From Candidatus Pacearchaeota archaeon (lineage in GTDB: Archaea > Nanobdellota > Nanobdellia > Pacearchaeales > GW2011-AR1), in assembly GCA_018303925.1 (NCBI GenBank), contig JAGVXF010000007.1, positions 56,775 to 120,774 of the forward strand: DNA of 64,000 nt, in the 5' to 3' direction. Within the stretch, counting starts at the first letter, position 1, and the number at the start of each line of letters is the position of its first letter. Positions 4,355-44,809 of this stretch are shown in pieces. The notes under the pieces were generated by a model. It was not told the origin of the DNA and made no database searches. It saw only the letters and a list, made by a program, of their open reading frames with translations. A program made the translations under genes and the position numbers.

Positions 4355-5479
4355 TTAACCAAAACCAATAACTCCCCCGCCAAGGCATTTTGTTTTATGG
4401 TAAAGAACTATTGCCTGACCTTCGGAGACTCCATTTATTGCTTTGTTTAGTATGACTTTTATTTTTCCTTTTTCTTCCGAAATTTTTGAAGGAATAAGTT
4501 CGCCGACCTGTCTTATTCTTGAAAAGATTCGTTTATGTTTTAGAAATTCTTTTTTTGTTTCATCTATAAGATGAAGATTGTCCACCATTATAATTTTTCG
4601 GTAAAGAATGGGGTGGCCTTCTGGCGCTGCTGTGAGAGTATTTGTTTTAACATCTTTTTTTGAAACATACCACTTGCTCATTCTTTTTGTTGTTTTGTCT
4701 TTTCTTTCAATTTCGAATCCATAGCGTGGTCCGAGTCTTTGTCCTATTGTATAAAAATAAACTCCATCATGTTTTCCAATAACATTTCCCTCTGGATCAA
4801 GAATTTTTCCAATCTTTGGTTTTATTTTTTTAGAGAGGAAATTTTTAAGATTAACTTTTCCGATGAAGCAAATTCCAACTGTTCCTTTTTTGTCAGCATT
4901 TTGAAATCCGTTTTTTCTTGCAAGGGCTCTCACTTTCTTTTTTGTTAAGTTTCCTATAGGAAAAAGCGTGCGGGAGAGTTCATCCTGATTTTGCCTGTAT
5001 AAAAAGTATGACTGGTCTTTATTTTCATCTTTTGCACGATGAAGTTCATAATTTTTTCCTTTCTTTTTTATCCTTGCATAGTGTCCTGTTGCAATCAAAT
5101 TAATTCCTGCTTTTTTGGCAGCCTCAATTAACAACGGGAATTTTATTTTTTCATTGCAATCAATGTCTGGGTTTGGGGTAATTCCCGCTTTATATTTTTT
5201 GAACATTTCGTCAACCACCAATTTTTTGTATTCTTTTTCAAAGTCAAGTGTTACAAATGTTATTCCTAATTTTGTTGCAATTTTCATTGCATAATCTCTT
5301 TCTTCAATCCATGCGCACTTGCCTGTTATTTTATTTTTGGTGTCAGACCAATTTTTCATGAAAGCCCCATAAATCTTATAACCTTTTTTTTTCAGGAAAA
5401 GCGCTGCTACGGAAGAGTCCACTCCCCCCGACATTGCCAGAAGGACTTTTTGTTTTGGTTTATTTTTAAATTGGTTCAT
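4355..5479 (-). CDS. mnmA: tRNA-specific 2-thiouridylase MnmA (bacterial-type)
   Basis: PP-loop SGGVDSS, plus NPDIDCN, ATGHYAR, DQSYFL, GICFIG and YTIGQR motifs, all in MnmA order. Confidence 0.85.
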   Translation of the reverse strand: MNQFKNKPKQKVLLAMSGGVDSSVAALFLKKKGYKIYGAFMKNWSDTKNKITGKCAWIEERDYAMKIATKLGITFVTLDFEKEYKKLVVDEMFKKYKAGITPNPDIDCNEKIKFPLLIEAAKKAGINLIATGHYARIKKKGKNYELHRAKDENKDQSYFLYRQNQDELSRTLFPIGNLTKKKVRALARKNGFQNADKKGTVGICFIGKVNLKNFLSKKIKPKIGKILDPEGNVIGKHDGVYFYTIGQRLGPRYGFEIERKDKTTKRMSKWYVSKKDVKTNTLTAAPEGHPILYRKIIMVDNLHLIDETKKEFLKHKRIFSRIRQVGELIPSKISEEKGKIKVILNKAINGVSEGQAIVLYHKTKCLGGGVIGFG

Positions 5480-5647: not shown

Positions 5648-6166
5648 TTAAAGGTTTTTATTCTTTTTTTCCTTCAGCCCCAAATCCAAAACAGGGTCTT
5701 CTTTTCTTTTTTCAAGGCCCTTGTAAACATTTGCATGTTTTGAGCCCTGAATAATTTGTATAACTGCCTCAATTGCGGGTTTTATTCTTTCAGGGTCGCC
5801 GATTATTCCAATTTCATTATTTTTTAGTTCAAGAGAGCACTTTGTCAGTTCTGAAAGAGTTGAAAGGGTCTTTCCGTTTTTTCCGATTATTCTTCCTCTT
5901 ATTTTTACAAGGTTTCCTCTTCTTGCGTAATCCTTAATATTTAAAATATCAAATTCAAGTTCGTGTTTTTTTATTGAGAGCGCATCAGAAAAACTAAATC
6001 CCATGCCGAGAGCATCAAGAACCTTTGTTGCTATGAATTCATCTTCAGGAGACCCTTCAAGGATCACTTCTTTTTCACTATTTGCAATTTTTACCTTAAG
6101 GACTTTTTCAAGTTTTTTTCTGTTTTTGGTTATCCTTTCAAAGTCATCGCATATTATTGTTGCCAT
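5648..6166 (-). CDS. KH-domain RNA-binding protein (aDim2/Pno1-like)
   Basis: Two KH-like segments. The C-terminal one carries a GXXG loop (IIGKNGKT). Size of 172 aa and adjacency to aIF-1A are typical of archaeal Dim2-like proteins. Confidence 0.5.
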   Translation of the reverse strand: MATIICDDFERITKNRKKLEKVLKVKIANSEKEVILEGSPEDEFIATKVLDALGMGFSFSDALSIKKHELEFDILNIKDYARRGNLVKIRGRIIGKNGKTLSTLSELTKCSLELKNNEIGIIGDPERIKPAIEAVIQIIQGSKHANVYKGLEKRKEDPVLDLGLKEKKNKNL

Positions 6167-10263: not shown

Positions 10264-10812
10264 TTAAAGATTTATATTTAAGGGGAAAATTTTTTTATTC
10301 TCAAATATTTCATTTTTCTGCTGGTCCAGTGCATCAATTATTTCTTTTTTGAAACTAAAAATGTCAAAATCCATTGTTTCAATTACTTTCAATTTTTTCC
10401 CTTCAGTGTATGCCTGTATTGCTGAACCCTTCCCGATTTCAATAGGCGCATACTTATCAAAGTTTTTGCCTAAAAATTCTTTCGCAAAAGAATATTCATT
10501 ATAGTCAAAATTAATTATCGCCCTTAAAAAATAACAATTTCCCAATTCTCTTTCAACCTTTTTATTAAATTTAATTGTCTGATCTGACAAATTATTATAA
10601 CCTCTTTTTGAAAGATTATATGCAATTAAAAAATTTCTAAAATATTGTTTTTCCATAGTTGGAAGAATATTCTTTTCAAGATTTGTTAGAACTTCAAGGA
10701 CCACTTCTAAACTTATTTTTTTATCTTTTGAAATTATTATCGTTTCTTCCATTTTCTTAAACTTTTTGGACAAAACCTCTTCTTGGACGAAAAAGAGTTC
10801 CTTCCTTTGCAA
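10264..10812 (-). CDS. Hypothetical protein between the OB/wH gene and MCM
   Basis: 182-aa ORF in the same orientation as mcm. No motif recognised. Its position suggests a replication accessory protein (a GINS-like protein is one possibility), but this is a guess. Confidence 0.35.
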   Translation of the reverse strand: MQRKELFFVQEEVLSKKFKKMEETIIISKDKKISLEVVLEVLTNLEKNILPTMEKQYFRNFLIAYNLSKRGYNNLSDQTIKFNKKVERELGNCYFLRAIINFDYNEYSFAKEFLGKNFDKYAPIEIGKGSAIQAYTEGKKLKVIETMDFDIFSFKKEIIDALDQQKNEIFENKKIFPLNINL

Positions 10813-12785
10813 GCCTGTCTACGGCCTCTTCAATTTCTTCAGGAGTCAGCTTTCCTTCAAGTTTCTCTTCTACCTTTTTAATCGGGACAATTTCCCCGGT
10901 TTCTTTTATGAGTGCAAAAATTATGTCCCTGACAATAAAAACTTTATTTCTTTGGCTTGATTTCATTTTTCCGGAAATTTTGTCTATATCTATTTCTCCT
11001 GTTTCTTCGTCAAATCCAACTTGCTCAAGGTAGTATTTTAAAAGGTTTATTGCGACTTCCGCATCTTTTCCTTCTACTTTTTCAGACATCCTGAGTTTTG
11101 CCGCCGCTTCAGCCATTCTTATAAGAGAGTTAAGTTGCCTTGCCGAGATAGGAATTGTTCTCATTTCCTGTCCTTCAATCATCGGACGGTTTCGAAGGTT
11201 CACATAAAACTCTTTCATTTTTTCAACTGCTTCATTTGTTAATTTTGGCTGAACTCTTCGCCTTGCATATGCAATATATTTTCTGAAGAGTTCTTTTTCA
11301 ATTATCATTTCTTTTGCTTCTTTCTGATGTTCTTCTAAAATGTGGTCTGCAACTTTGGTGTCATTTCTCATATTTGGGATGTCCCTCATTGTAAAAATAA
11401 GGTCAAACCTGTTGATAAGCGCTGGAGGCAGGTTTATTTGCTGGGGGATTCCCTGAGTCGGGGGCCCGAAGGGTTGCCTGGATATTTGCTTTTGAGATTG
11501 TAACAGTTTGCTGCTCAAGGGCTTCATGCATTGCTGACTGGTCTGACGGGTCCATTTTTTCAAGTTCATCAATACAGACAAGACCTTTATTTGCCAAGAC
11601 CATGGCTCCTGCTTCAAGCGACCACCCTTTAAGATATTCATCTCTTATAACACTTGCAGTCAAACCTGCGCCTGAAGCTGATTTTCCAACGACATAACGG
11701 CCTTTCGGAGAAATATTTGCCATGAAATTCAAAATTACAGACTTTGCAACTCCTGGGTCTCCTATCATCATTATGTGAATATCCCCCCTTGTTTTTTGCC
11801 CGTCTGATTTTTGCTTTTGCACTCCACCAAAAAGCTGAAGAAGAAGAGATTCTTTTATTTTTTCATATCCCCATACACTTGGGGCGATACTATCTCTTAA
11901 ATTTTCACGGACATTTGGGTCTGCCGCAAGTTCCTGAATTTGCTGTTCATCTTCTTCGGTTATGTCAAGTTCTTCAAAAGTTTCTTCAAGAGGAATTATA
12001 TTATTTACTTCAATTGCAAGTTCAAAACGTGTTGACATTCCTCCCGTTGAGAGGGGAACAGGAACTTCATTTAATATTCCTATGACCCGTACTCTTGCTC
12101 CGGGAGTTGTTCTTTCTTCCATTTTAGGATCAACTAAATCTTCTTTTACAAAAACATTTATCCTTTTTGGCTGCTCTCCTCCGTGAAGCATGTCGGGAGC
12201 CTCTTCAACAATAAGTCTTTGCGTGTCAACCATCTCTTTTGAAATTAGTCTGAATCCCCCTCTTCTTCCGCAAGAGCATCGGCTTGGTTCCCTGAACTTT
12301 TTTTCAATCTGAAGGACCGAAATAATTGTTCCACAGCTTGGACATTCAAACTTTGCGTTTACAACCTGCGGACGAACATCTGAAGACTGGCGGATTATTC
12401 CTTCAATTATTATTAATTCATTTAAATGTTTTGAACGGATGTTTCTTATGAGAATTTCATCTGACTTTTCAAGGTTAAAAAGCCTCACTCTTACGTTTTC
12501 AATAAGTCCCATTTCTTCAACTGCAATTTCTATTATTCTAAGGGTTTCTTCAGGGTGTTTTATTATTTCTTCAGAGAGAACCGGCGATTCTTCAGCAATT
12601 TCCATAAAGTCAATATAAACAACATTATTTTCATCCCGCAAGGAAGATTTTAGTTTTTTTTTGTATGAATCAATAAAACGCTTTGATTCTAGGATAAGTT
12701 CTTCCTGCTTTCCTGTTTGCTCTGGTCTTTTAGTCTCAATTATTCTCTCCTCATCCGGTTCTTTTGTAAAGTCCACCTCATCCAT
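10757..12785 (-). pseudogene. mcm: MCM replicative helicase, interrupted; two overlapping ORFs in different frames
   Basis: The 5' ORF (12785..11403) has the Zn finger CPSCG...CSCG, Walker A IGDPGVAKS and Walker B CIDELEKM. The 3' ORF (11641..10757) has the arginine-finger INRFDLIF. At the frame change (about 11460-11475) TLRA in one frame runs directly into PFGPP in the other. The roughly 12-aa sensor-1 segment (NAR..V.AAANPK) expected between them is absent. Confidence 0.8.
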
Positions 12786-15355: not shown

Positions 15356-15971
15356 TTATTTATTCTTAGCCTCTTGATAGTTTTTTTCAACTTGCTCCCA
15401 ATTAATCACATGAAAGAATGCTTCTATGTAATCCGGTCTCTTATTCTGATATTTTAAGTAATATGCATGTTCCCAGACATCAATCCCGAGAATCGGAATT
15501 AATCTGCTTGAGATGGGAGAGTCTTGGTTTTTTGTCTTGACTATTTTTAGTTTATTTTTGTCAAGAACAATCCATGCCCAACCGCTCCCAAATAAAGTTA
15601 TGGCGGCTTCTGAAAATTGTTTTTTGAATTCGTCATATGAGCCGAATGTTTTTTTGATTTCGTCAATGACTTTGCCTTTTGCCCTGACATCCTTTTTTAA
15701 TATTGAAAAGAAAAAATTATGGTTGTATGCCCCCCCGCCATGGTTTATCACAGCCTGCTTTATGTCTTTAGGAACTGAATCAATATTTTCCAAGAGTTCT
15801 TTGACTGATTTTTCCTCCAACCATCTCCATTGTCTCTTTGTCAATGTAAGGTTCAAGGGAATCATAATCATAAGGAAGGGGATTTAATTCATATGCCATA
15901 TATGAAAATATTTTCATGTGTTTATATAATTTTTGGTGTTTTGGAAGATTTATATATTTCTCCTTAATCAA
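15356..15971 (-). pseudogene. Fe/Mn superoxide dismutase with a disrupted N-terminal region
   Basis: C-terminal domain intact (DVWEHAYYLKYQNKRPDYIEAFFHVINW; NHGGGAYNH). The N-terminus MAYELNPLPYDYDSLEPYIDKETMEM is in another frame and runs into a stop. The expected HHxKHH...YVNNLN segment is replaced by about 5 aa plus a frameshift, so the first His ligand is lost. Confidence 0.55.
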
Positions 15972-24600: not shown

Positions 24601-27600
24601 ATGAAAAAAAATTTAACATTAATTAGTTTAATGTTAGGTGTTATGATTGTTTTGATGGTTGGAGCAGTTAGTGCTGTGACTTATGGTCCAATAGGTTCCG
24701 ATTATTCATTGTGTACACACGATGGAGCATCCGATTGGATTTGTACTTCCGAAGTTCACGTTAACGACTCTTCTTATGCAAATATGGATGAAGAAGAAGA
24801 GGTTCAGGGTAGATGGAATGCAGTAATTCCTACAAACGCGGTTGTGACAAGTGTTAAAGTATATGTTGAAGGTATGGAAACTGACCCAAATGTGGAAGCA
24901 AACATTCAATTATGGAGTACAGATACTCAGGAATCTTTGACAGACTATCAAGCTTTTTCACACAACAACTGGCAGACTAAAACATTCCAAGATTCTGATT
25001 TGACTGATTATGTTCAGTCAAAAGTTTCTGCAGGGCAGCCTATAAAATTGGAATTAGATATAGAAGGTGAAAATGACGATGAGAATCACAATGAGATTCT
25101 TATTGATTATATCCATCTTAAAATTACTTATGAAATTCCAGAATGTCCTTTTGAACCACAAGATGGAAGAACAATAGTCCATTTTAGTCCTAGTGATAAA
25201 ATATTATCCTCGGGAAGTTCTGCTGATGCTCAAACTGATAATGAATCGGTTGACTTGGCTGCAGGAAAATATGGGGTTTCTCTTTACTCTTGGGATTATG
25301 GTGTAAACAGGGCAACTCAGAGTCAGCCAAATGAAGAATATTTTGTATTCTTCTATGATTCCTCTGGGAATCTTATAGCTCAATCAAGCGATTCTACGGA
25401 TTTGGCAGACAATGTTATTTTCGCGGATTGGGAAGGACAGGTTGATACAAATTTGGTTTTGTCAGGGGCAGTGGAAGATGTTCAAGGTTTCCATGCGGTT
25501 TATCCTGATGGATCAAGTCCAAACAGCTTAGTTGCTGAATGTGCGGCTTTTGATTTTATAGAAGAACCATGTAGTTTGGAAGTAACTAATCCTGAAGAAG
25601 GAGATTGGTTTGACAACGAGTCTGTTCCAATTAATTGGACTCTTAGTGAAGGTTGTCAATCTATTGTTCATTCATCACTTTACTATTACAATTCTGTAAA
25701 TGGAGAGTGTAATACCCAAGGTCCTTGGAATGAGATAGCAATTCAAGTCTCATCTGCAAATACTGTTGTGAACCCTCCTTTTGAACATGGTTATTTGTGG
25801 GATAAACCTTCAGAAAGTGGGCAATACTGTGTCTATGTAGAAACTCATTCATCGGGTGTAAAAGGATATTCAGAAGTTTTCAATGTTGATCATGCAAAAC
25901 CCTATGTAAATTTAAGTGTGGGAAGTCCTCAAACAGGAACATGTACTGAAGCTGACGGAGAGATTTGTTGGGTTAAACCGAACACTCCTATAACTTTGAC
26001 TTGTCAGGATAACAATCCTAATGAGCCTTGGCAGTCTGGTCCAGATGAAATCTGGTACAGTATAAATGAGGGTCCAGTACAACTTTACACTGGTGCGTTT
26101 AGTTTCCAAACGGATTCTGAACATGACCTAGAATATTGGTGCTTTGATAAAGTGGACAAAGAATCTGAACATAAGTTCAAAGATTTCTTTGTGAACTCTG
26201 AATCTCCAACAATAACAAAAACTGTTGGAGAGCCAAAGGTTAACGCTTCAAGTGAGGAATTTGACTGGTATGTAAATACTGGCACAAAGATTTGCTTGTC
26301 TGCAACTCAAGGAAATCCTACGCATCCAACTCCTGGAGGAGTTGTAATTGATTGTGGGTACACTTATTCCTTAGATAATACAAATTGGGATAAAATACAA
26401 CACGTATCTTTTGATGAAAACGGATGTTTTAGTTATCTTGAAGATTCTTGGCATGAACTTAGTTGTACAGCAACTGATGCTTTAGGAAACACAGCTTTCC
26501 TTTCAGAGAAAGACATTGTGGATTCACAAGGTCCAACGACAACGTGGGATCATGAAGGGCCATACTATTCTTCTGAAAATGGAAAGTGGGTTGACGGTAT
26601 TTCAAATATAACTTTGAGTGCAACAGATCCAGATTCACATCCAGTAGGGGTTGACAAAATTTACTACAGATACACTGTAGTCAATGATGACTATTGTTAT
26701 GGAAAACTCGAAGGTTTTGAAGAACCCGAAAGGTGGAACCAGGATTGGACAGTTTATACTGAACCATTTGGACTTCCAGAATCATGTCATGTGATTGAAT
26801 ATTACTCTAATGATTTGTTGGGTAATAGTGAAGGAATTCATCATGAATTTATCTTTTCAGATCACACTGCTCCTGTTTTGACTAAACTAGTTGGAGAACC
26901 AAGTACTCCTAAGAATGAAAATCCTCTTGAGAACTGGTACGAAAACGAAGGTCAAAAAATTGAGTGGGCAGTTACAATGGACACCCCAATTGAGATAAGT
27001 TGCGAGGATTCAAGTCCTCACCCTTCCGGAATTGGAAATACTCAAGGAAGTGGAATTTATTGGAGGGTAGTTCTAGATGGGGAATATAATTCTTCATCTG
27101 CACAATGGCAGAACTCAAGTACAGACCATGTAACAATATGGTTTAAAGAGCAATCTGAACACCTACTTGAATTTTACTGTGTTGATAATGTTGGAAAGAA
27201 ATCTGAAACAGATTCAGAACTTTTCAAAGTCATAGGAAGTTCATTTGACTTGATAATTGGAGATAAATGGGACTTAATTTCAGTTCCATTCAATTTGTTG
27301 AGTAATGATATAGATGAAGTTTTCGGGAATAATTCAGACATTACAGGCATATGGGGTTACGACCCTTCAACAGGATGGCATTTGTATGCGCCTGGTGTTA
27401 CCGAAGATGATTTGACAACAATTGAACCCGGACACGGTTATTGGATAAAAACTGACAGCGAAACTACTGTTTTAATAGGGGGTAGTTTATTTAGCCCTCA
27501 AAGTGTTCCTGCTGCAGTTGAACTTCAGAATGGTTGGAATTTAATAGGTCACTACGGAACTTCAAACAAGAATTCGTGGTGTAGCCTTTTCTCATTAGTA

Positions 27601-27774
27601 GATACTTCAGTTGGTTTTCCAAGATGGAGTTCCTTATGGGGATACGATTCACCTTCACAAGATTTCGTTCCATTAAGCGCCTATGACAATACAAACCCAG
27701 GAAGAGGTTATTGGGTTGAAATGGATGTGAATGACACATATGTTCCGTCTTCAATTTGCTGGGGACTTAATTAA
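24601..27774 (+). CDS. Giant secreted Cys-rich surface protein (1057 aa)
   Basis: Signal peptide (MLGVMIVLMVGAVSA). Many paired Cys and numerous N-x-S/T sequons. SD-like aaggagg 16 nt upstream. Shares an approximately 100-aa domain with the 28849 ORF. Confidence 0.7.
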   Translation: MKKNLTLISLMLGVMIVLMVGAVSAVTYGPIGSDYSLCTHDGASDWICTSEVHVNDSSYANMDEEEEVQGRWNAVIPTNAVVTSVKVYVEGMETDPNVEANIQLWSTDTQESLTDYQAFSHNNWQTKTFQDSDLTDYVQSKVSAGQPIKLELDIEGENDDENHNEILIDYIHLKITYEIPECPFEPQDGRTIVHFSPSDKILSSGSSADAQTDNESVDLAAGKYGVSLYSWDYGVNRATQSQPNEEYFVFFYDSSGNLIAQSSDSTDLADNVIFADWEGQVDTNLVLSGAVEDVQGFHAVYPDGSSPNSLVAECAAFDFIEEPCSLEVTNPEEGDWFDNESVPINWTLSEGCQSIVHSSLYYYNSVNGECNTQGPWNEIAIQVSSANTVVNPPFEHGYLWDKPSESGQYCVYVETHSSGVKGYSEVFNVDHAKPYVNLSVGSPQTGTCTEADGEICWVKPNTPITLTCQDNNPNEPWQSGPDEIWYSINEGPVQLYTGAFSFQTDSEHDLEYWCFDKVDKESEHKFKDFFVNSESPTITKTVGEPKVNASSEEFDWYVNTGTKICLSATQGNPTHPTPGGVVIDCGYTYSLDNTNWDKIQHVSFDENGCFSYLEDSWHELSCTATDALGNTAFLSEKDIVDSQGPTTTWDHEGPYYSSENGKWVDGISNITLSATDPDSHPVGVDKIYYRYTVVNDDYCYGKLEGFEEPERWNQDWTVYTEPFGLPESCHVIEYYSNDLLGNSEGIHHEFIFSDHTAPVLTKLVGEPSTPKNENPLENWYENEGQKIEWAVTMDTPIEISCEDSSPHPSGIGNTQGSGIYWRVVLDGEYNSSSAQWQNSSTDHVTIWFKEQSEHLLEFYCVDNVGKKSETDSELFKVIGSSFDLIIGDKWDLISVPFNLLSNDIDEVFGNNSDITGIWGYDPSTGWHLYAPGVTEDDLTTIEPGHGYWIKTDSETTVLIGGSLFSPQSVPAAVELQNGWNLIGHYGTSNKNSWCSLFSLVDTSVGFPRWSSLWGYDSPSQDFVPLSAYDNTNPGRGYWVEMDVNDTYVPSSICWGLN

Positions 27775-30415: not shown

Positions 30416-30593
30416 TTCTTAAGGTTTTTCTTGCAATTTGCCCTGCTTACATTTATTTTATAATCCGTTGTTTTAGGGTTAAAAATGCGGTCTTTATTAG
30501 ATTTAAATTAGATGTTTCATCATCTGTTAAGTTAACAGAATCCCATAACATTAATTATTTAAGTTTACTTTTCTTCTTTAAATAAATTAAGAG

Positions 30594-31824: not shown

Positions 31825-32607
31825 ATGATAAATGAAATAATCAGACCAATTGTCAAAGTGGGAAACAGTTCAGGGGTGGTTTTGCCTAAGAACTGGTACG
31901 GGGGAAAAGCAAAGATTGAACTTGTTGAGAAACCGCTCAATATAAAAAAAGATCTTCTTGAAATTTTAGAAGGATATCTTGCAAAAGTTTTGGGAGTTTA
32001 TCTTTCCGGAAGTTATGCGAGAGGGGAGGAAAAAGAAAGTTCGGATGTGGATGTGTTAGTTATAACTTCAGATTTAAATAAAGTGATAAAAAAAGGAAAA
32101 TATTATATAATTTTAATTTCAAAAAAGATTTTAGAAAACACCCTTAAAAAAAACGTTTTGCCTCTTCTCCCCATGGTTAAAGAAGCAAAAACTATTTTGA
32201 ATGAAAGCCTGATTCGAGAATATAAAGGAACCCTTTTAACAAAAAGGAATTTGAAGTTCCATCTTGAAACCACAAAGTCTGCTCTTGAAATTAACAAGTC
32301 TTTAGTTTTACTGGATAAAGAAAAGAACTTGAATTCTTCGGATGGGGTTTCTTATTCTCTTGTTCTTAGATTAAGAGGAGTTTACATTGTTGATTGCCTG
32401 ATTAAAAATAAGATGTGGTCAACAAAAGAATTAAAGAATCTTATAAAAAAAGTATCTGGTTCTTCAGAAGCATATTCCGGGTACCTGCGTGTTAAAAATG
32501 ATGAGAAGAATCAGGAGAACCTGAAAACTGAAGAAGCCGAAAAAATCATAAATTATGTTTCCAAGAAAATCAATGAACAGGAAAAATGGCTAAGAAAAAT
32601 AAAATAG
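31825..32607 (+). CDS. MazE/AbrB-like swapped-hairpin domain fused to a minimal nucleotidyltransferase (MntA-like), paralog 1
   Basis: N-terminal VKVGNSSGVVLPKNW (MazE/SpoVT-AbrB-like). NTase motif GSYARGEEKESSDVDVLV (GS...D.D). C-terminal helical domain. About 35-40% identical to the 34880 ORF. Confidence 0.6.
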   Translation: MINEIIRPIVKVGNSSGVVLPKNWYGGKAKIELVEKPLNIKKDLLEILEGYLAKVLGVYLSGSYARGEEKESSDVDVLVITSDLNKVIKKGKYYIILISKKILENTLKKNVLPLLPMVKEAKTILNESLIREYKGTLLTKRNLKFHLETTKSALEINKSLVLLDKEKNLNSSDGVSYSLVLRLRGVYIVDCLIKNKMWSTKELKNLIKKVSGSSEAYSGYLRVKNDEKNQENLKTEEAEKIINYVSKKINEQEKWLRKIK

Positions 32608-32765
32608 AAAAAAGCATCAAAAGTTTTAGTAAGAGAATTGAAGAACATAAAAAGAAAATCCAAAATTTTTCCGGGAAAAATGATCTTGTCATTGGATACT
32701 GGAAAAATGAAATAAAACATTTTAAAGATATGAAGAAAGAAAAAGAAAAGAAATTAAGAAAGTGA
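32586..32765 (+). CDS. Small basic protein (59 aa), paralog of the 34680 ORF
   Basis: ATG at 32586 overlaps the 3' end of the upstream NTase gene by 22 nt. It shares KSF.K.(I/V)E.H..KI.N..G.....YW..EI with the 34680..34880 ORF. Confidence 0.35.
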   Translation: MAKKNKIEKSIKSFSKRIEEHKKKIQNFSGKNDLVIGYWKNEIKHFKDMKKEKEKKLRK

Positions 32766-32803
32766 ATTGTTATAATAAATTAAGTTTTTAAAAGGAACAA
32801 AAT

Positions 32804-33010
32804 TTATTTCTTCCAGTCAACATTCTTAAACTCATATTTTGTTGCAATTAAGATTATGTCCACAATCCACCATATACCGATTCCTCCAAAAGTTATTAGT
32901 TTTAAAATTCCAGTTCCTATTTTTCCGAGGATAAATCTGTCCACACCAAAGAATCCAAAAACTATAGATATTACAAGAACCAAAACCCAGTCTACTTTTT
33001 TCTTTGCCAT
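32804..33010 (-). CDS. TM2-domain small membrane protein
   Basis: GFFGVDRFILGKIGTGILKLITFGGIGIWWIVD matches the TM2 domain pattern (G..G.HRFYLG...G..QL.T.GG.G.WW..D). Confidence 0.6.
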   Translation of the reverse strand: MAKKKVDWVLVLVISIVFGFFGVDRFILGKIGTGILKLITFGGIGIWWIVDIILIATKYEFKNVDWKK

Positions 33011-33215
33011 ATTTAAGCATGAAAACTTAATTATTTAAATCCTCCTTTTACCTTCACTAAAAATTTGAGAATCTTGCCAAAGGAAGGAGGTTAATCAATT
33101 TAGAAAAAATGTGATAGATAATTATTTCTAGTTAATTAAATTGGTATTTATCCAAGAAAGAGATATTGGTTTAGATGACAAGATAATTTATTAAATAATC
33201 TTTCTTACCAATTTT

Positions 33216-34622
33216 ATGGAAAACTTCAGGCATGAAATAAAAAAAGAAGATGAAATGAATGTTTCGGGAGTAATTTATGCATCTGAAAAAATTTACGAGG
33301 CAATTAAGAAAGACAAAACTATTGAGCAGGTTAAAAATGTCGCAAAACTTCCGGGAATTGTCCGTGAGTCAATTGCACTCCCTGACTGCCATCAAGGTTA
33401 TGGTTTTTGCATCGGGGGGGTTGCTGCTTTTGACTTGAAGAAAGGGGTGATTTGCCCTGGGGGCATAGGGTATGATATAAATTGCTCGGTAAGATTACTC
33501 AAAACGAACCTTAAAAAAGAGGATATTTTAAAAAAACAAAAAGAGGTTCTTGAAACCCTTTACAAGAAAATTCCGTCAGGGGTTGGTCACGGGAGTCCTT
33601 TTCAGATTAGTTACAAAGAACTGGATAAACTTTTAGATAGGGGAGCAAAATATATGATTGAAAAAGGTTACGGAATTCCCGAAGATTATTTATACAGTGA
33701 GGAAGAAGGATGCATGAAAAATGCTGATTCCCAAAAAATTTCAAAAAGAGCAAAGCAAAGAGGGATTGGGCAAATAGGGACGATTGGCGCCGGAAATCAT
33801 TTTTTAGAAGTCCAAAGTGTTGAAGAAATTTATGACAAAAAAACCGCCGAAGTTTACGGACTCTCTAAAGGGCAGATTGTAGTGATGATTCATTGCGGTT
33901 CAAGGGGGCTTGGTCATCAGGTTGCGTCGGATTATATTAAGTTAATGGAAGATAAATATGGAATAAAAAATCTGCCTGACAGGGAATTAATAAACGCACC
34001 GATAAATTCTGAATTAGGAAAAGATTATTTTTCAGCAATGGGTGCTGCTGCAAATTTTGCTTTTGCTAATAAACAGCTTATTACATATTGGGTTCGTGAG
34101 GCTTTAACAAATTTATTTTACGAAAAGAAAGTAAAGGTTGAAGTTCTTTATGATGTTTGCCACAACATAGCAAAGATTGAAGAGTATTTTGTGGGGGGTA
34201 GAAAAGTGAAAGTTTGTGTCCATAGGAAGGGCGCAACAAGGGCATTCGGAAAAGGAAGAATTGAAATTCCTGAAAAATACAGGAGCGTTGGGCAACCCGT
34301 TTTAATTCCGGGCTCAATGGGAACAGCATCCTATGTAATGGTTGGGCGCAAGAAATCAGAAGAATTAACCTTTGGTTCATCTGTTCACGGCGCCGGAAGA
34401 CTCATGAGTAGAAGTCACGCAGTAAAAAACCTTAACGGAGAAAAAATAAAAAAGGACCTGAAAAAGATAGGTGTTGAAGTTGGCGTCGGGAGTCTCAGAG
34501 GGTTAACAGAGGAAGCTCCAGAAGTTTACAAAGATATAGACGAAGTTGTAAGAGTTGTTGATTCACTTGGAATTAGTCAAAAGGTTGCAAGAATGAAACC
34601 TTTGATTGTTATTAAGGGATAA
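33216..34622 (+). CDS. rtcB: RNA-splicing ligase RtcB
   Basis: Full RtcB motif set in order: PDCHQGYG, GYDINCSVR, GNHFLEVQ, CGSRGLGHQVA, CHNIA, HRKGATRA, GSMGTASY and VHGAGR. Confidence 0.95.
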   Translation: MENFRHEIKKEDEMNVSGVIYASEKIYEAIKKDKTIEQVKNVAKLPGIVRESIALPDCHQGYGFCIGGVAAFDLKKGVICPGGIGYDINCSVRLLKTNLKKEDILKKQKEVLETLYKKIPSGVGHGSPFQISYKELDKLLDRGAKYMIEKGYGIPEDYLYSEEEGCMKNADSQKISKRAKQRGIGQIGTIGAGNHFLEVQSVEEIYDKKTAEVYGLSKGQIVVMIHCGSRGLGHQVASDYIKLMEDKYGIKNLPDRELINAPINSELGKDYFSAMGAAANFAFANKQLITYWVREALTNLFYEKKVKVEVLYDVCHNIAKIEEYFVGGRKVKVCVHRKGATRAFGKGRIEIPEKYRSVGQPVLIPGSMGTASYVMVGRKKSEELTFGSSVHGAGRLMSRSHAVKNLNGEKIKKDLKKIGVEVGVGSLRGLTEEAPEVYKDIDEVVRVVDSLGISQKVARMKPLIVIKG

Positions 34623-34679
34623 GTTGACTTTTGGTTTAATTTTAGTAAAGTTTATAAATATGTAAGTACATGTAAATAC

Positions 34680-34880
34680 ATGGGCAAAGACATCAAACAT
34701 ATGAAGAAACTGCGCAAAAAAAGATTAAAATCGTTTAGAAAGCAAGTGGAAAAACACGAGGAAAAAATTGAAAATGAGAAGGGAAGGTTTGATACAACCA
34801 AAGATTACTGGGAAAAAGAAATAGATGAAAAATTTTTAAAAAAGATCGAAGAAGATGAAAATTATCTGGAGGAAAAATAA
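34680..34880 (+). CDS. Small basic protein (66 aa), paralog of the 32586 ORF
   Basis: Shares the conserved KSFRK.VEKHEEKIEN..G.....YWEKEI core with the 32586..32765 ORF. Its stop codon overlaps the ATG of the downstream NTase gene. Confidence 0.4.
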   Translation: MGKDIKHMKKLRKKRLKSFRKQVEKHEEKIENEKGRFDTTKDYWEKEIDEKFLKKIEEDENYLEEK

Positions 34881-35653
34881 TGGAAATACAAATTAAAAAG
34901 GCTGTCAAATCGGGGAATTCTTCAGCTGTAATTCTTCCAAAATCATGGTTGAATAAAGAAGTCCGAGTTGAACTTGTTGAAAAGTCCCCCGAAAAAATTC
35001 TTTCCGAAGTTCTGAATATTGTTGGAAATTATCTTGATTTAAAAAAGATAATAGGAGTTTATCTTGTGGGAAGTTATGCCCGTGGAGAAGAAGATGAGGG
35101 AAGTGACATTGATATTCTGGTTCTAACTGATGATTTAGACAGAAAGATGATTTCCAAAGGAGAGTATAATGTTTTAATCTTGTCTTCAAATCTATTAAAA
35201 CAAAAATTAGATAGGGATCTTCTCCCTATTGGGCCAATGATTCGAGAAGCGAAGCCTCTTTTGAATCTTAGCTATCTTGATTTAATAAAAGTAGAGGTTA
35301 CAAAAAAGAATGTTTCTTGGTACCTTCAAACTACAAAAGACAAATTAAGAATCATAAAAAGTATCCTTTCCAGAACAAAACTTAAATTTCTCGATAGTAG
35401 AATTGCTTATACTTTGGTTTTGAGAATAAGGACTCTTTATTTAATTAATAAGATGATAAAAAATGAAAAACCGTCAAAAAAGGAACTTATAGAAATAATA
35501 AAAAGCACTTCCGGAGGAGAAAATGCTTACAGAGGATATTTGGATGTAAAAAATAATTCAAAGAAAAAAAGAGAAATCAGCTCAGATGAAGCTCGGGGGC
35601 TGTATGATTATTTGAAGAATCTTTTATCTGATATTAAGATGCAATTAAACTGA
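34880..35653 (+). CDS. MazE/AbrB-like domain fused to a minimal nucleotidyltransferase (MntA-like), paralog 2
   Basis: N-terminal VKSGNSSAVILPKSW. NTase motif GSYARGEEDEGSDIDILV. Same architecture as the 31825 ORF. Confidence 0.6.
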   Translation: MEIQIKKAVKSGNSSAVILPKSWLNKEVRVELVEKSPEKILSEVLNIVGNYLDLKKIIGVYLVGSYARGEEDEGSDIDILVLTDDLDRKMISKGEYNVLILSSNLLKQKLDRDLLPIGPMIREAKPLLNLSYLDLIKVEVTKKNVSWYLQTTKDKLRIIKSILSRTKLKFLDSRIAYTLVLRIRTLYLINKMIKNEKPSKKELIEIIKSTSGGENAYRGYLDVKNNSKKKREISSDEARGLYDYLKNLLSDIKMQLN

Positions 35654-35937
35654 TTTTATATGGGCACAAATTTTATAAATATGAAATAATCGGAGGATCT
35701 GCAAAGAATATTTCTGAAAATCTAAAGAAAAAATATTACAAAATTGAATGGAGAGAAATTGTGAGGGCAAGAGATTTAATTGTCCATAGTTCTTTTAAAA
35801 TTGATTCCGATGCAATTTTTGGGATTATGGAAAAAGATTTTCCGATTTTAAAAGATCAAATTGATGAAATTTTGGAGAGCGGATGTGAATTCAAAAAAAC
35901 AAAAATATTTATAAAACACTTTAACCTAATTTTTAAA
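35638..35937 (+). pseudogene. HEPN (HepT/DUF86-type) C-terminal remnant without a start codon
   Basis: The open frame reads ...KYEIIGGSAKNISENLKKKYYKIEWREIVRARDLIVHSSFKIDSDAIFGIMEKDFPILKDQI..., which matches the HepT C-terminal half (IIGEA.KNLSE..K..YP.I.W..I.G.RN.LVH.Y..ID...VW). The roughly 40 aa of N-terminal HepT sequence is missing, and there is no ATG, GTG or TTG at a sensible position. It overlaps the NTase stop and ends at the start of the giant gene. Confidence 0.45.
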
Positions 35938-38900
35938 TGATAAAAGAGGGAAAGGTAATCTTTAGTTTATTATTTTTGCTAATCTTTGTTGTTGTGATTT
36001 TTTCAAGTTCATTTGTTTTAGGAGAATTAACATGTGCTGGGGGGACATTGACGGGAACTTACGCAGGATGTGATGGAGATTATGAGAATACCCAAACAGG
36101 AAGTTGCTGGTATAGACCCCCAATTTACTACCCCAATGGAACTGCGATGTACAATTTCAAGAGTTTGGGTCTTCGGGCAGAAGTTTATTGTTGGAATTTT
36201 GAAACTCCCGCTTTGTGTGGTTCCAATGACGAATATTGTAAATGGTATCATGGGCAAAATTCTTGTTATGGTCTGAGTCAGGAAAATTGCGGGTCAATAT
36301 ATTATCCTACTTGTTCTCCCCAATATTCAGATTATACCTGCTCTTGTCCTTTAGGGCAGCACAGTGATTTGGCAAGTACCCCTTTTGCATCATGCAGTGG
36401 AACTTTTGTGGAAAATTATACATCTAGTTATTGTTATTGGAGGGAGGGTGTAAAGGCTAATGCCATAAGTCAAGGTGAGTATTGCAGTTATTCTGATGCC
36501 GGTTCTTGCAGAGGTGCCGATGAATTCTGTGAATGGAATATCTTATCTTACTCAGCTACTTTTTCATGTATTGGATTTAATGAGCAAACATGTATGTTTA
36601 CTTCAGGATGCGTAGCGTCTTATGATACCAATTATCAATGTGTTTCAAATACATGCTCAGATACCGATGGGGGTTATGTTCCCGAAATACAAGGAACAGT
36701 TAGCGCTCAAAGTGGGGATACTGGGACAGATTTTTGTGAGGATGGTTATTTTTTAACTGAGTATTATTGTTCGAATAGTGTCGGATTCTCAGGACAGGAA
36801 ACCTGTAACTTTGGTTGTTTAAATGGAGAGTGCAAGCCTGTTCCTTGCCCAAGTTCTCAAGAAGGGGTAAATGGAGGAAACCTTGGATGTATTGATAAAA
36901 TAATTTCTAATTCTCATATTATTTATTCAACTTCTTCATGTACTAGTTTAAGTCAAATTTGTTCTGCATGTAATTCGGGTTATTATCCTTCTTATGATTA
37001 CGCTACAGAATCTTATATTTGTCACGCTATCCCTGATACTTGCTCTGACAGCGACGGGATGAATTATAATACCCGAGGGACCGTGAATGCAAGTAGGGGA
37101 TATTCAGGAACTGATTATTGCGCTGATTCCGGGGGAGACCCAGGGGCTCCAACTTCAGAAGGGGATATTTTATGGGAGTTTGGATGTTCAGGAACGACCG
37201 GAGTTAAAAATATTTATGGGGATTGCCAGTATGGATGTTCAGAGGGAAAGTGTAATCCTACTCCTCCCCTCCCAGATTGTCCTGTTACCCAAACTGGAAC
37301 TATATATGTAGGATGTGTACAGGATCAAGATATAAATTCAAATCTAATTAACTATGCCCATTCAACAAATGATTTATGTAGTGATGAATATGTGTGTTTT
37401 CAATGTAATTCAGGATACATCTGGGACGGAAATAATTGTGTTCTTAAATGTCCAAGTCCACAACCAGGAACGAGCGGGGGAAATTTGGGATGTTTAGAAA
37501 ATCAGGTTTTATATTCTTACGTTTTGTATCCCACCTCTTCATGTACTAGTTTAAGTCAAATTTGTTCTGCATGTAATTCTGGTTATTATCCTTCTTATGA
37601 TCACGCTACAGAGTCTTATATTTGTGTTCCTGTGTCTATTTCATGTACGGATACAGATTTAGGTCAAGCTTATCCTGAATATTTCAAAGGGTCTCTAACT
37701 GCAACGACGGGGATAACAAATGGTATGGATAATTGTGCAGATTCAACACATTTAAATGAATATTTTTGTGATGCATCAAACCGAGGTTCACTTGATTCCA
37801 ATCATCTTTGCCCAAAAAACTATGGTTGTAATAGTGGCGCATGCAGAGACTTTTATTTTGTTGGCACATCAGATGGTAATAAAATTTTATCTTTAGGTCA
37901 GGGAACAACTCTTCCTAAGACGATTAAATTTGTTGGTTCAGCTTATTCAGGGTCAGGAGGAGGGTCTTTTTCACTTTATGAAAGGGCTTGGACAAATGAA
38001 TTCTGGGGATGGTGTGATATTTGTGCAGCAGATACTCTTGTTGGGACTTATTCAGGAAATACTCAGGATTTTAACGGCGATGGGGTTAATGATTATTTAA
38101 GTGACAGTTGGACTTTAAATTCAAATGTTTTAAATTCTTTAGAATCTGATGGGCCGTATGACAAGTATGAATTTTATTTTAAAGTTGGTTCTTATCAAAG
38201 TTCTGGTTTGTTGGTTGATCCAAGTCTTGACACCTGCCACGACGAAATTCAAAATGGTGGCGAAGAAGGTATTGATTGTGGTCCTGTGTGTGGAAATGAA
38301 TGTCTTTTTTGTCAGGACAGCGATGGAGGGCAAATTTATGATGTTCAAGGAAGGATAATTGCAAACAATGGGTTACATACAAGCGGGACAGATTTTTGTG
38401 ATGATTCAACTCATTTAAATGAATATTATTGTAGTGCTGCTAATGCAGGTTCTTTAGAGATACGCCACTATTGTGGGGCTGGAAATGCATGTTCAAATGG
38501 AGTTTGCACAGGAGAGCAAATTCCTAATTCAATTGTTTATTGGGCTTATAAAACCTATCAGGAGGCACCCGGATATTTAGAGGTATTAAACTCAAGTATT
38601 GGTTCTTTTGGAAGAAGATTAGTTTTAACTTATCCAGAACCTTCTCTTAGTTCATTTCAGATATTTAAAGAAAGCAATGCAATTTTTATTCCCGATACAT
38701 TGGTAAGAGAAGAGTATGGTTCATCATTTTCTAATTTTTATTTTTATGATTGGATTCCTTCTTATGCGGATTTTATGAATGCAGGAACTCCGACTTTTAG
38801 CAATAATACATATAGATTTTACTTTAAGGTGGACGATGGAGATAGTCGTTTAACAAGCAATTATTGGGATGTTTATGTAATTGGAGAGGTTCCTTCATGT

Positions 38901-39545
38901 ACTGATGGAGCGCAGAATGGGGATGAGGAAGGAGTTGACTGTGGAGGAAGCTGTCCAAACGAATGTGAACCAGATATAGATCAGTGCCTTGGAATAGATT
39001 TTTGTATGGATTATACCAGCGAGGCGACATGTAATTTAGATAATTGTAGTGTTGCACAATATAGTGGTTATGCTCCTTCCGGTACAACTCCTTTGTGTAT
39101 TTGGTATTCGGTAGTTCCCGAGGAATGTATCTTTGGCTATTCAGGAAGTAATTATGGGGTTTGTATGCACCACGATAGCCCGACAAATGACAGTTGTGAG
39201 GATGACGGTTTTTTAACTCATATATGGACTAATGAATATTCCTGGGATTTAGATAATGCTTTTTCAACCCAGCAGGCATGTGAGGTTTATACATCTGAGT
39301 GTTCAGGCAATTGTGTCTTAAGGGGAAGTTCATGGCATTGTGATCCCAATGGAGAAGAAACAACGTGCTTAAATGGAGAAACTACTGCAACAATTCCATG
39401 CCCTGCTCAAATACAACTTGGATTTTTTGATTGGCAGAATGTGGTAGTTGCTATTCTTGTAATTTTCCTTTTGTATTTAATTCTTTTGAAGAATAAGAAG
39501 ACACAAACAGAAAAATCCTCGAAAGGCAAAAAGAGAAAAAAATAG
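35937..39545 (+). CDS. Giant secreted Cys-rich modular surface protein (1202 aa) with C-terminal TM anchor and basic tail
   Basis: Signal peptide. Four copies of an approximately 60-aa module C.D[ST]DG..GT....G.D.C.D...L.EY[YF]C...C..GC..G[AK]C. Two NG-EEG-DCGG-C-NEC modules. An approximately 200-aa tandem duplication. C-terminal TM AILVIFLLYLILL followed by KKTQTEKSSKGKKRKK. Confidence 0.7.
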   Translation: MIKEGKVIFSLLFLLIFVVVIFSSSFVLGELTCAGGTLTGTYAGCDGDYENTQTGSCWYRPPIYYPNGTAMYNFKSLGLRAEVYCWNFETPALCGSNDEYCKWYHGQNSCYGLSQENCGSIYYPTCSPQYSDYTCSCPLGQHSDLASTPFASCSGTFVENYTSSYCYWREGVKANAISQGEYCSYSDAGSCRGADEFCEWNILSYSATFSCIGFNEQTCMFTSGCVASYDTNYQCVSNTCSDTDGGYVPEIQGTVSAQSGDTGTDFCEDGYFLTEYYCSNSVGFSGQETCNFGCLNGECKPVPCPSSQEGVNGGNLGCIDKIISNSHIIYSTSSCTSLSQICSACNSGYYPSYDYATESYICHAIPDTCSDSDGMNYNTRGTVNASRGYSGTDYCADSGGDPGAPTSEGDILWEFGCSGTTGVKNIYGDCQYGCSEGKCNPTPPLPDCPVTQTGTIYVGCVQDQDINSNLINYAHSTNDLCSDEYVCFQCNSGYIWDGNNCVLKCPSPQPGTSGGNLGCLENQVLYSYVLYPTSSCTSLSQICSACNSGYYPSYDHATESYICVPVSISCTDTDLGQAYPEYFKGSLTATTGITNGMDNCADSTHLNEYFCDASNRGSLDSNHLCPKNYGCNSGACRDFYFVGTSDGNKILSLGQGTTLPKTIKFVGSAYSGSGGGSFSLYERAWTNEFWGWCDICAADTLVGTYSGNTQDFNGDGVNDYLSDSWTLNSNVLNSLESDGPYDKYEFYFKVGSYQSSGLLVDPSLDTCHDEIQNGGEEGIDCGPVCGNECLFCQDSDGGQIYDVQGRIIANNGLHTSGTDFCDDSTHLNEYYCSAANAGSLEIRHYCGAGNACSNGVCTGEQIPNSIVYWAYKTYQEAPGYLEVLNSSIGSFGRRLVLTYPEPSLSSFQIFKESNAIFIPDTLVREEYGSSFSNFYFYDWIPSYADFMNAGTPTFSNNTYRFYFKVDDGDSRLTSNYWDVYVIGEVPSCTDGAQNGDEEGVDCGGSCPNECEPDIDQCLGIDFCMDYTSEATCNLDNCSVAQYSGYAPSGTTPLCIWYSVVPEECIFGYSGSNYGVCMHHDSPTNDSCEDDGFLTHIWTNEYSWDLDNAFSTQQACEVYTSECSGNCVLRGSSWHCDPNGEETTCLNGETTATIPCPAQIQLGFFDWQNVVVAILVIFLLYLILLKNKKTQTEKSSKGKKRKK
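36933..37023 (+). repeat. Internal direct repeat copy A (about 91 nt) within the giant gene
   Basis: tcttcatgtactagtttaagtcaaatttgttctgcatgtaattcgggttattatccttcttatgattacgctacagaatcttatatttgt is repeated 603 nt downstream with 3 mismatches. Confidence 0.85.
37536..37626 (+). repeat. Internal direct repeat copy B (about 91 nt) within the giant gene
   Basis: Near-identical to 36933..37023 (g/t, t/c and a/g differences). It encodes SSCTSLSQICSACNSGYYPSYD(Y/H)ATESYIC in both copies. Confidence 0.85.
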
Positions 39546-39548
39546 ACG

Positions 39549-40341: not shown

Positions 40342-40498
40342 ATTAGGAATTATTATTTGTTTAAATAATATTCTTTTTTGTTTTTAATAAAATTTTTGGC
40401 CGAACTGTAAATCCATAAATTTTATATCCTCACTTGTATTTGAAAAATATATAAATGGGAAAGTTTATAAATAACTTCTAAGTAGTAATATCAGGAAG

Positions 40499-42160: not shown

Positions 42161-44809
42161 ATGAAAGAAAAAAGGGGAGGTAGTTATTTTTTAGCTGTAA
42201 TTCTATTTATCTTTTTAATTTCATATGTATCCGCATCTTATGAGTTTTCAAATCATTCAATTGAAACTCATTATTCAAAAGGCTCAACCATCTCAGGAAA
42301 TATTAATATTTCTTTTGAGAACGAATCTTTGAATTCTTTTTTTGAAGATTCATTTGATAACAAGGTTTACCTTAAAGATTTACTCGGAGGTTCGAATTCA
42401 TATTTATACAACTGTACTTCCAAGAAATGTTCTTCATCATATGTTCTTTCAAACCCATCAAGTTCCAAAACTTTTTCTCTTCCAAAAGGTGAAGAAAAGA
42501 CCTTTGGATTTGTGATTCAGGGAAATATTCAGAACATAAATTCGGTTTCTTTTTTGCTTTCAAGCACTGCTCCCGCGTCAGATTTAAATCAGATAAAAAT
42601 CGATATTTTAGATGATGGAATTATTGATGCAGGAAACTCCAAAGCCGGAACTGCTTCGCAGAATGTGAATTATGGTTGTTATAATGCAAGCGAGGGGCCA
42701 AACGAGATAAACCTTATAACTACTCCTTTTTGCCAGAATATAACTGTATATGAATCTCCGGGTCTGCTTCTTGGAGGATTTTTTAAAAAAGTCTCAGACG
42801 GGTCAAATGGAATTGGATTGAATATTTACAATAAAAAAGGAGTTTCTCTTGGATCATGCAGAATTTTAAATTCAAGTGTCTCTTTTTCAGGAGGGAACTA
42901 TTTTTGCAGTGTGAATGTCTCTATACCTGAAACTAATAATTATTATATCTGTGCTTATGCAGAACAGGGAGAGGCCAAATACAAAACTCTTGGATATTCT
43001 TCTTTGTCATCAGGAAAAAATTGCGGTTTTTTAGGTTATTTAAGTTTTCCCCCCCAAAATGAAACTGCGGCATACAAGATAGGTCTGACCCCCTTAAAAT
43101 TTTCTTCTCCAAGTGCTCTTAATATCTCAAATGTCCTTCCAACTGGAGATTTAATCTCTTTACTCATCGGAGAATATCTCTCCAAAACTTATCCTGAAGG
43201 CTGCCTTGAGGGATGCAAGATCCCTTTAAAATTAGTTTCTTTTGAAGACCAGTCAATCACTTTAAACAGCCTGAAAGTCAGTTATGATGCAGAATCGCTT
43301 CCAGGTCTGGAGATTTCAACTTTTTATGATTTTGACATTCAAGACTCAAAAGTCAGTTCTCCAATGCAGTTACTTCCTCTTGACGGATTTTTTTATGTTT
43401 CTCAGTTAGGGTGGGATGAAAATTACACCCTCAAATTTAAAGGAGAAAAACTTTTTAGTGAAAAGATTTTCCTTGAAAACTTCTCCATTCAGATTTATCC
43501 CTTAAGATATGCTGTTAATTTTTCTGTTCCTTTTTTAATATTAAATTCTCAGGATGCGGGTTCACAGTATTATGAAATTGATTTTGGAGACAATTCCATT
43601 TCCACAACTTCGTCAAAATCTTTTTTGCACAAATATATTTCAGTTGGGAATTTTAGTTTAAAGGTTTCGTCTTATATAAACGGCACCAAATTAACAAAAA
43701 CCTTCAAAATAGAAATTCTTCCTTCAAAAAACTTTATTGACAATGAAATTAAAATCCAGAGGAGTTCCATTTCTTTTTTTAACTCACAGATATCTTTTAT
43801 GAATTCTTTTGAAAAGTCAGAAATAAACAGAATTTTTGAACTTGAGAACCTGACTACCACACTTAATTCAATTGAATCTTCTGTTTCTTTGGCGTCTTCG
43901 GATTCGGATTATGAGAAAATTTTCGGGAATTTAATCAGGCTTAATATTCCAAAGTCAATTACTCGCACAGTCTCCCAGGAAATCCCTTTTATTATTGAGG
44001 TAAATGAAATAAATCTGGATATCCTTAAGGATATAACCGAAGAAGACTATTCCCCTGCCGATGAAAGTGCTGATTATATTTCTTTTTGGGATTATGAAAA
44101 TCTTAATTCAAAAATCTCCTCTAACAATATTTTAGTTGAGACAGCAGACGGTTCAAAAGTTCCTCTTAATTTTTATGAGATTTCTATCTCTCCTAAAAAA
44201 AATATTAACCAGTCTTATTATTTTATTTTTCCAAATTCGGGGAATGCCAATTTTGAAGAAAATTCCGGAGTTGAGGCCGGGAGCGGGTATTCCTATTTTG
44301 AACTTGGAAACATTGAAAAAACTATAAGGTTTTCAACCGGGGAAGATTTTGGGTCGTATCATCCTTTTTTTATTGCCCCACAGAATGTTGAAGTTTTCGC
44401 AGGAGGGGACATTTCCGAACCCATGAATAATAACTGGATATTGATTTTAGTAATTCTGGGGGTTATTCTAATAGGGTTTTTAACTTATTACATTATGCAC
44501 AGGTGGTATGCTGTTAAGTATGAAAATTATCTTTTCCCTGATAAAAACCACCTTTACAATGCAATTTTTTATATAAATAATTCATTAAAGAATGGAATGG
44601 AAGAGAGTGAAATAAGAAAGAGTCTGCTTGATGCTGGATGGAAAAATGAGCAGGTTGTTTACTTAATAAAAAAGCATTCAGGAAAGAATCCGGGGATGTT
44701 TAATCTGTTTGGTTCTTCAAGTGAAAAGGGATCCTCAAAAATAAATTCACCTCCAAAACCTGGAAGAAATGTGAATTATAAGGATTCAAATACAAAATTT
44801 AATAAATAA
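42161..44809 (+). CDS. Type-I membrane surface glycoprotein with PKD-like domain and cytoplasmic tail (882 aa)
   Basis: Signal peptide. Dense N-x-S/T sequons. PKD-like YYEIDFGDNSIS...HKYISVGNFSLKVS. TM WILILVILGVILIGFLTYYI followed by an approximately 110-aa cytoplasmic segment. Confidence 0.6.
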   Translation: MKEKRGGSYFLAVILFIFLISYVSASYEFSNHSIETHYSKGSTISGNINISFENESLNSFFEDSFDNKVYLKDLLGGSNSYLYNCTSKKCSSSYVLSNPSSSKTFSLPKGEEKTFGFVIQGNIQNINSVSFLLSSTAPASDLNQIKIDILDDGIIDAGNSKAGTASQNVNYGCYNASEGPNEINLITTPFCQNITVYESPGLLLGGFFKKVSDGSNGIGLNIYNKKGVSLGSCRILNSSVSFSGGNYFCSVNVSIPETNNYYICAYAEQGEAKYKTLGYSSLSSGKNCGFLGYLSFPPQNETAAYKIGLTPLKFSSPSALNISNVLPTGDLISLLIGEYLSKTYPEGCLEGCKIPLKLVSFEDQSITLNSLKVSYDAESLPGLEISTFYDFDIQDSKVSSPMQLLPLDGFFYVSQLGWDENYTLKFKGEKLFSEKIFLENFSIQIYPLRYAVNFSVPFLILNSQDAGSQYYEIDFGDNSISTTSSKSFLHKYISVGNFSLKVSSYINGTKLTKTFKIEILPSKNFIDNEIKIQRSSISFFNSQISFMNSFEKSEINRIFELENLTTTLNSIESSVSLASSDSDYEKIFGNLIRLNIPKSITRTVSQEIPFIIEVNEINLDILKDITEEDYSPADESADYISFWDYENLNSKISSNNILVETADGSKVPLNFYEISISPKKNINQSYYFIFPNSGNANFEENSGVEAGSGYSYFELGNIEKTIRFSTGEDFGSYHPFFIAPQNVEVFAGGDISEPMNNNWILILVILGVILIGFLTYYIMHRWYAVKYENYLFPDKNHLYNAIFYINNSLKNGMEESEIRKSLLDAGWKNEQVVYLIKKHSGKNPGMFNLFGSSSEKGSSKINSPPKPGRNVNYKDSNTKFNK

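Follow-up and report, generated by a model that had tools for sequence, protein, structure and literature searches.

The mcm gene of the 64,000-nt stretch of DNA analyzed here (the window) is interrupted by the loss of 47 nt, which we consider quite probably a local assembly error in a single MAG scaffold. The break is most likely not a real biological feature of the organism, and we infer that its cause is the assembler rather than mutation. The gene would be the ordinary, single chromosomal replicative MCM helicase of a Rifle-aquifer member of the Pacearchaeota (DPANN). In the proposed sequence of events, the assembler mis-joined the sequence in one MAG scaffold and dropped 47 nt through a local assembly or scaffolding error. 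This loss would take the beta-strand that carries the sensor-1 asparagine and also shift the reading frame, leading gene callers to report 'MCM' proteins of 460 and 210 aa, while the organism's real gene would be a 691-aa ORF with all ATPase motifs. The main value of the observation is as a data-quality flag, as the public NCBI MAG contains MBS3084442.1, MBS3084441.1 and a broken superoxide dismutase gene. The broken mcm and sod records are not to be taken for gene loss, split genes or DPANN reductive evolution.

Structure of the interrupted mcm gene

The mcm region lies on the minus strand at 10757-12785, where the ORF list divides a canonical archaeal MCM between two overlapping ORFs in different frames. 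ORF A (11403..12785, minus strand, 460 aa) ends in ...TVTISKANIQATLRA followed by 19 residues out of frame, and ORF B (10757..11641, minus strand, 294 aa) reads ...SRQPFGPPTQGIPQQINLPPALINRFDLIF. A single continuous ORF of ~690 aa is not found; the window has these overlapping ORFs of 460 and 294 aa in its place. ORF A matches the Pfam families MCM_N (E 2e-6) and MCM_OB (E 8e-25) and positions 1-164 of the 224 in the MCM P-loop profile (E 4e-63), and ORF B matches positions 182-224 of the same profile together with MCM_lid (E 2e-26). Profile positions 165-181 are matched by neither ORF, and three-frame translation across the junction does not yield the AAANP sensor-1 strand in any of the three frames. 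An earlier, sequence-only reading had described a frameshifted mcm lacking the sensor-1 segment, and both the translation and the Pfam gap confirm this description.

Alignment to a contig of 100% identity shows that exactly 47 nt, CAGACATCTGTTCTTGCAGCAGCAAACCCAAAGTTTGGAAGGTTTGA, are absent from the window mcm. They correspond to mcm nt 1324-1370, or codons 442-457, and encode the 16 residues Q442-D457, QTSVLAAANPKFGRFD, which include the sensor-1 Asn450. The missing block had been put at roughly 12 aa; the alignment to the intact contig bears out its absence and corrects its size to 16 aa (47 nt). An indel in the homopolymer gggggccc had also been envisaged. However, a 47-nt block is gone rather than 1 nt. 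The deletion junction is placed at 11462/11463, in the sequence CTTCGGGCCCCCGACTCAGG, by alignment to five contigs from other assemblies (L001, L012, L013, L015 and L016), with 1 nt of microhomology or ambiguity. The other 2,029 nt of the window gene show no difference from the intact allele, whose gene is 2,076 nt long.

The codons on the 5' side of the junction, 1-441 (11463..12785, minus strand), form the in-frame part of ORF A. They encode the N-terminal domain and an OB fold with the zinc-finger cysteines CPSCG...CSCG (translation and Pfam), followed by the Walker A motif GDPGVAKS from residue 342, the Walker B motif CIDELEKM from residue 404 and the pre-sensor-1 hairpin ISKAN from residue 430. 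In a tblastn comparison, residues 1-450 of the intact allele are 98.7% identical to the window. The out-of-frame tail of ORF A (11403..11462, minus strand) is a product of the 47-nt loss and consists of PDSGNPPANKPASSAYQQV and a stop codon. It is identical to the C-terminus of MBS3084442.1, and the same DNA in the other frame encodes MCM residues 458 onward. The 'FG' of PFGPP had been taken for the conserved Phe-Gly of KFGRF; these residues are really read from out-of-frame Leu-Arg-Ala codons, and homology extends from P458.

Homology restarts at this proline (CCG, window 11461) and continues through V691 to the stop codon at 10757-10759. Codons 458-691 with the stop (10757..11461, minus strand) are 100% identical to the corresponding residues of the intact allele by tblastn. 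Their product has the arginine finger, in the motif NRFDL from residue 474, followed by an AAA-lid that includes sensor 2 and by a winged-helix region at the C-terminus. All of these elements are present, but in another frame than the N-terminal part. There is no start codon at the junction, and the first in-frame ATG of the 3' piece is 24 codons past it. The GC content near the site is 46–54%, compared with 34% genome-wide, and might have affected coverage or sequencing accuracy.

In the public record, ORF A is identical to MBS3084442.1 (460 aa), and the 210 codons from window 11389 to the end of the gene are MBS3084441.1 (210 aa). Both entries carry the name 'minichromosome maintenance protein MCM [Candidatus Pacearchaeota archaeon]' and belong to one 157,439-bp contig.

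A 99%-identical protein recovered by homology search (P0001, encoded on L001) runs through the junction uninterrupted (...ATLRAQTSVLAAANPKFGRFDPTQGIPQQ...). The intact allele is a 691-aa MCM with the Pfam domains MCM_N, MCM_OB, MCM and MCM_lid, in which the sensor-1 residue N450 is present. Its alignment with PDB 8x7t, 'mini-chromosome maintenance complex 3', spans the full length (E 1e-140); the other solved archaeal MCM structures used for comparison were those of Sulfolobus solfataricus (6mii and 4fdg) and an Sso-Pfu chimera (4r7y). The deleted stretch is colinear and gapless with archaeal MCM and with eukaryotic MCM2-7, including yeast and Xenopus MCM7. Compared with archaeal MCM, the window copy is without residues 442-457, comprising the sensor-1 strand and the PKFGRFD loop, and then runs out of frame. 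The S. solfataricus MCM has its sensor 1 at N448, its ps1-beta lysine at K430 and its arginine finger at R473 (PMC6629641), and from the alignment of the motifs (AAANP for sensor 1) N450, K432 and R475 would be their counterparts here. As MCM active-site mutations generally abolish ATPase activity (PMC4619765), the MCM product as written in the window is predicted to be dead. Relatives at 72–91% identity have a full-length MCM of ~690 aa in the same TBP-mcm-OB-fold-protein neighborhood.

The same population in other assemblies

The population originates from the aquifer at Rifle, Colorado, and proteins identical to those of the window occur on more than 20 contigs. These contigs come from the MEGAHIT assembly of SRR1658462 (PRJNA268031), ANAN16-1 scaffolds, GCA_036849835.1, Logan assemblies, and the JGI metagenomes 3300025117 and 3300025012. 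Nineteen loci from independent assemblies (MEGAHIT, IDBA-UD, JGI, NCBI and Logan) together match the window at 99.97–100% identity along 62,790 of its 64,000 bases. Four differences are private to the window: the 47-nt mcm loss, the replacement of 66 nt by 1 nt in a sod gene, and SNPs at 30518 and 30526. The two SNPs (C and G in the window, T and T in six other assemblies) are intergenic, lie 8 nt apart and are the sole substitutions that set the window apart from all other assemblies.

The 47 nt are kept in L001, L012, L013, L015 and L016, and L014 has the first 36 nt followed by Ns. With the exception of these Ns, both the mcm and the sod segments are kept in all other assemblies read. An intact 691-aa MCM is called in L012, L013 and L015, with which at least 19 further similar places are grouped. 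Within a 90% cluster of a collection of 15 billion proteins, the intact 691-aa form occurs on 15 contigs (NCBI, JGI and ENA), a 540-aa nonsense form on one contig, and the 460-aa form on one, which is the window's own record. Because the 47-nt loss is confined to the window scaffold, against 15 intact contigs of the same population with identical flanks, an assembly error is favored. This supports the first of the options that the sequence-only reading had offered, a local assembly or strain-variant artefact. A second mcm elsewhere, another of its options, is unneeded, and tblastn finds none within the window; genuine decay, also listed, is contradicted by the intact alleles of the same population. 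The broken gene is otherwise unchanged from the intact allele and so shows no secondary decay.

Exact-pattern scans of genome and metagenome contigs with the flank sequences gave no match and are uninformative on the frequency of the junction. Exact look-ups also missed ORF A of the window although the identical P0122 is in the collection, and negatives from such look-ups do not mean absence.

The window's only other private indel is in the gene for an Fe/Mn superoxide dismutase (15356..15971, minus strand), with its junction at 15822, 4.3 kb from the mcm junction. The defect is of the same kind. A single G stands in place of 66 nt, a net loss of 65 nt (junction sequence GGAGATGGTTGGAGG), which shifts the frame and removes about residues 26-48, IHHNKHHQTYVNKLNDAIKKHPE, with the HHxKHH motif (HHNKHH). 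The enzyme is intact in all other assemblies, at 202 or 208 aa. Two out-of-frame deletions in the catalytic cores of conserved genes, accompanied by two intergenic SNPs only and by no coding SNP in 62 kb, are the opposite of the pattern expected under purifying selection, which again favors an assembly error.

Two of the other assemblies have peculiarities of their own in mcm. Over the length of mcm, L001 (ENA ERZ27254732 k141_966649, MEGAHIT, 107,894 bp) differs from the window at two places only, one being the 47 nt that it retains. The other is a private G-to-T change at 11621 (window 11212), which turns mcm codon 541 from GAA to TAA and divides the MCM into 540 and 141 aa; this stop may be a rare allele or else reflect an error of sequencing or assembly. 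L016 (MEGAHIT, ERZ27254739), with an mcm that is otherwise identical, has nine SNPs within 20 nt at 5160-5179, equivalent to window 12281-12300 and mcm codons 162-169. The cluster is suggestive of a second strain present alongside, of local recombination or of a chimeric consensus.

Origin of the junctions and rival explanations

An independent IDBA-UD scaffold, ANAN16-1_SAMN03842445 scaffold_81 (L014), has a run of 10 Ns (6034-6043) in place of mcm nt 1360-1371. After the Ns it restarts at CCGACTCAGGG, the same base where the window resumes, and it has a private C-to-A change within the 66-nt sod segment. L014 shows three anomalies over 8.6 kb, and two of them are at the sites deleted in the window, for which we estimate a probability by chance of ~5e-4. 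The breakpoint common to the window and L014 shows that the site is systematically troublesome. By itself, the L014 breakpoint fits an assembler artefact as well as a real deletion allele that is a minority in both samples.

N runs in the sibling scaffolds do not have the length of the sequence that they replace, as 145 nt are represented by 83 Ns, 1 nt by 10 Ns, 28 nt by 29 Ns and 12 nt by 10 Ns. In addition to the run in L014, there are three in the 22 kb of L009 (7088-7170, 12772-12781 and 18680-18708) and one in L005 (2364-2373), which has ~45 extra nt ahead of the Ns. These mismatches imply that tens of bases can go or come at such joins.

The published methods for Rifle DPANN MAGs used IDBA-UD with k 40-100 (PMC8204110), and the window's scaffold was therefore probably built with the same assembler. 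Short local assembly and scaffolding errors are documented for IDBA-UD metagenome assemblies (Anantharaman et al. 2016, PMC5079060; Chen et al. 2020, PMC7111523), and the single reported error rate for such assemblies is 13 in 1.13 Mb, or ~0.7 per 64 kb. The window's two presumed errors in 64 kb are above this single rate and below the density of N runs in the sibling scaffolds. Like these IDBA-UD errors, the defect spans tens of nucleotides in an otherwise perfect scaffold, is not reproduced elsewhere and has Ns at the same spot in a sibling. However, the IDBA-UD errors are defined by having no perfectly supporting read, whereas the window defect is known from assembled contigs alone. The window also differs from the N-marked joins in having no N at the mcm site, where the join was closed silently.

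Repeat scans found no repeat bracketing the 47 nt of mcm, the microhomology being limited to 1 nt, and no repeats at the sod site. Two 10-nt direct repeats are near the mcm site (AGGTTTGACC, 60 nt apart, and AGCAGCAAAC, 70 nt apart). Neither brackets the 47 nt, and a repeat- or microhomology-mediated deletion or k-mer collapse was rejected on these grounds. De Bruijn joins need junction-spanning k-mers, and the lack of a flanking repeat at the 47-nt loss therefore argues against a plain collapse; the origin must lie in a scaffolding or contig-merging step, or in real or chimeric reads. Both deletions fall in the most conserved motifs, which prompted the idea of graph tangles via k-mers of co-occurring relatives. 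This was also rejected, as all exact runs are shorter than the minimum k of 40. The mcm genes of relatives have 79% DNA identity, longest exact runs of at most 30 nt and only a 17-mer at the right breakpoint, and the sod genes have 69% identity and exact runs of at most 17 nt. Strain micro-heterogeneity, as seen in the SNPs of L016 and the sod SNP of L014, is a plausible cause of contig ends at both sites.

A real deletion allele would leave some of the same traces. A sub-lineage with mcm-delta47 (and sod-delta65) could be dominant in the sample of this MAG and a minority elsewhere, and several observations are consistent with it. The junction, clean and with microhomology of 1 nt, resembles those of non-homologous deletions, and a segregating variant would disturb L014 just where it is disturbed, at the window's right-hand breakpoint and within the sod segment. 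Additionally, L001 bears a different private lesion in mcm, the stop at codon 541, and the SNPs at 30518 and 30526 make the window a slightly distinct genotype. We nonetheless consider this reading unlikely. The 460-aa product is on one contig compared with 15 that carry the intact gene, and the window has no second mcm by tblastn. Selection makes it implausible that two independent null deletions would stand in 62 kb otherwise free of coding changes, and the known error mode of the assembler accounts for the pattern unaided. Such a null allele could be only transient or complemented, for example by heterozygous copies in a polyploid cell. The fuller claim that both deletions are real alleles segregating in a natural Pacearchaeota population, and dominant in one sample, strikes us as decidedly unlikely. 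If it were true, genomes without a functional replicative helicase would persist, for example as polyploid heterozygotes or through complementation by kin or host. A real deletion would amount to an unusual helicase-null genotype persisting in nature, but nothing in the present data favors this.

Genome reduction and host dependence are features of DPANN archaea. This lends some appeal to a genuine pseudogenization of the lineage's mcm, whose role in replication would then have passed to a second mcm or to a helicase of the host, and the search for another copy covered the 64-kb window rather than the whole genome. However, the same population and all relatives at 72–91% identity have a full-length MCM, which contradicts both decay at the level of the lineage and a conserved split, and the two pieces are undegraded and 100% identical to the intact allele. 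A pseudogene lesion would be common to relatives, accompanied by further degenerative substitutions, or both, and neither sign is found here. We regard pseudogenization as very improbable. Split genes exist in Nanoarchaeum equitans, and the window mcm resembles the split archaeal replication genes of that organism in that two adjacent ORFs jointly span one conserved protein; NCBI labels both pieces MCM. A functional split or recoded gene would give an active helicase either from two MCM polypeptides or by a programmed frameshift or bypass. However, the sensor-1 strand is in no frame, so no recoding can restore it, and the 3' piece is without a start codon at the junction. A true split gene loses no residues and is conserved in related genomes, and an intein, as in intein-containing MCM, brings additional sequence. 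In contrast, the window mcm misses 16 conserved residues, its frames overlap and its break is conserved in no relative. We give a functional split almost no credence, and a local assembly error is the explanation that we prefer for the 47-nt loss.

Other features of the window and of a related MCM

A related Pacearchaeota MCM of 553 aa (P0077), encoded on a 2,647-nt ENA contig, has a Lys/Glu-rich, non-MCM tail after ...TLRDIPDKQK. The tail could be an insertion, or it could result from a chimeric contig or other assembly defect in this relative.

Elsewhere in the window, a direct repeat of ~150 nt with 85% identity (36873-37022 and 37476-37625) is found inside an ORF at 35937..39545 (1202 aa) that has no Pfam match. 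Other large ORFs nearby without a Pfam match are located at 24601..27774 (1057 aa) and 42161..44809 (882 aa). The region at ~31825-40400 contains several nucleotidyltransferase (NTP_transf_2/Polbeta) genes, one of which adjoins a HepT-like gene. Judging from the Pfam labels on an identical ENA contig, the nucleotidyltransferase and HepT-like genes look like putative HEPN/MNT toxin-antitoxin pairs.
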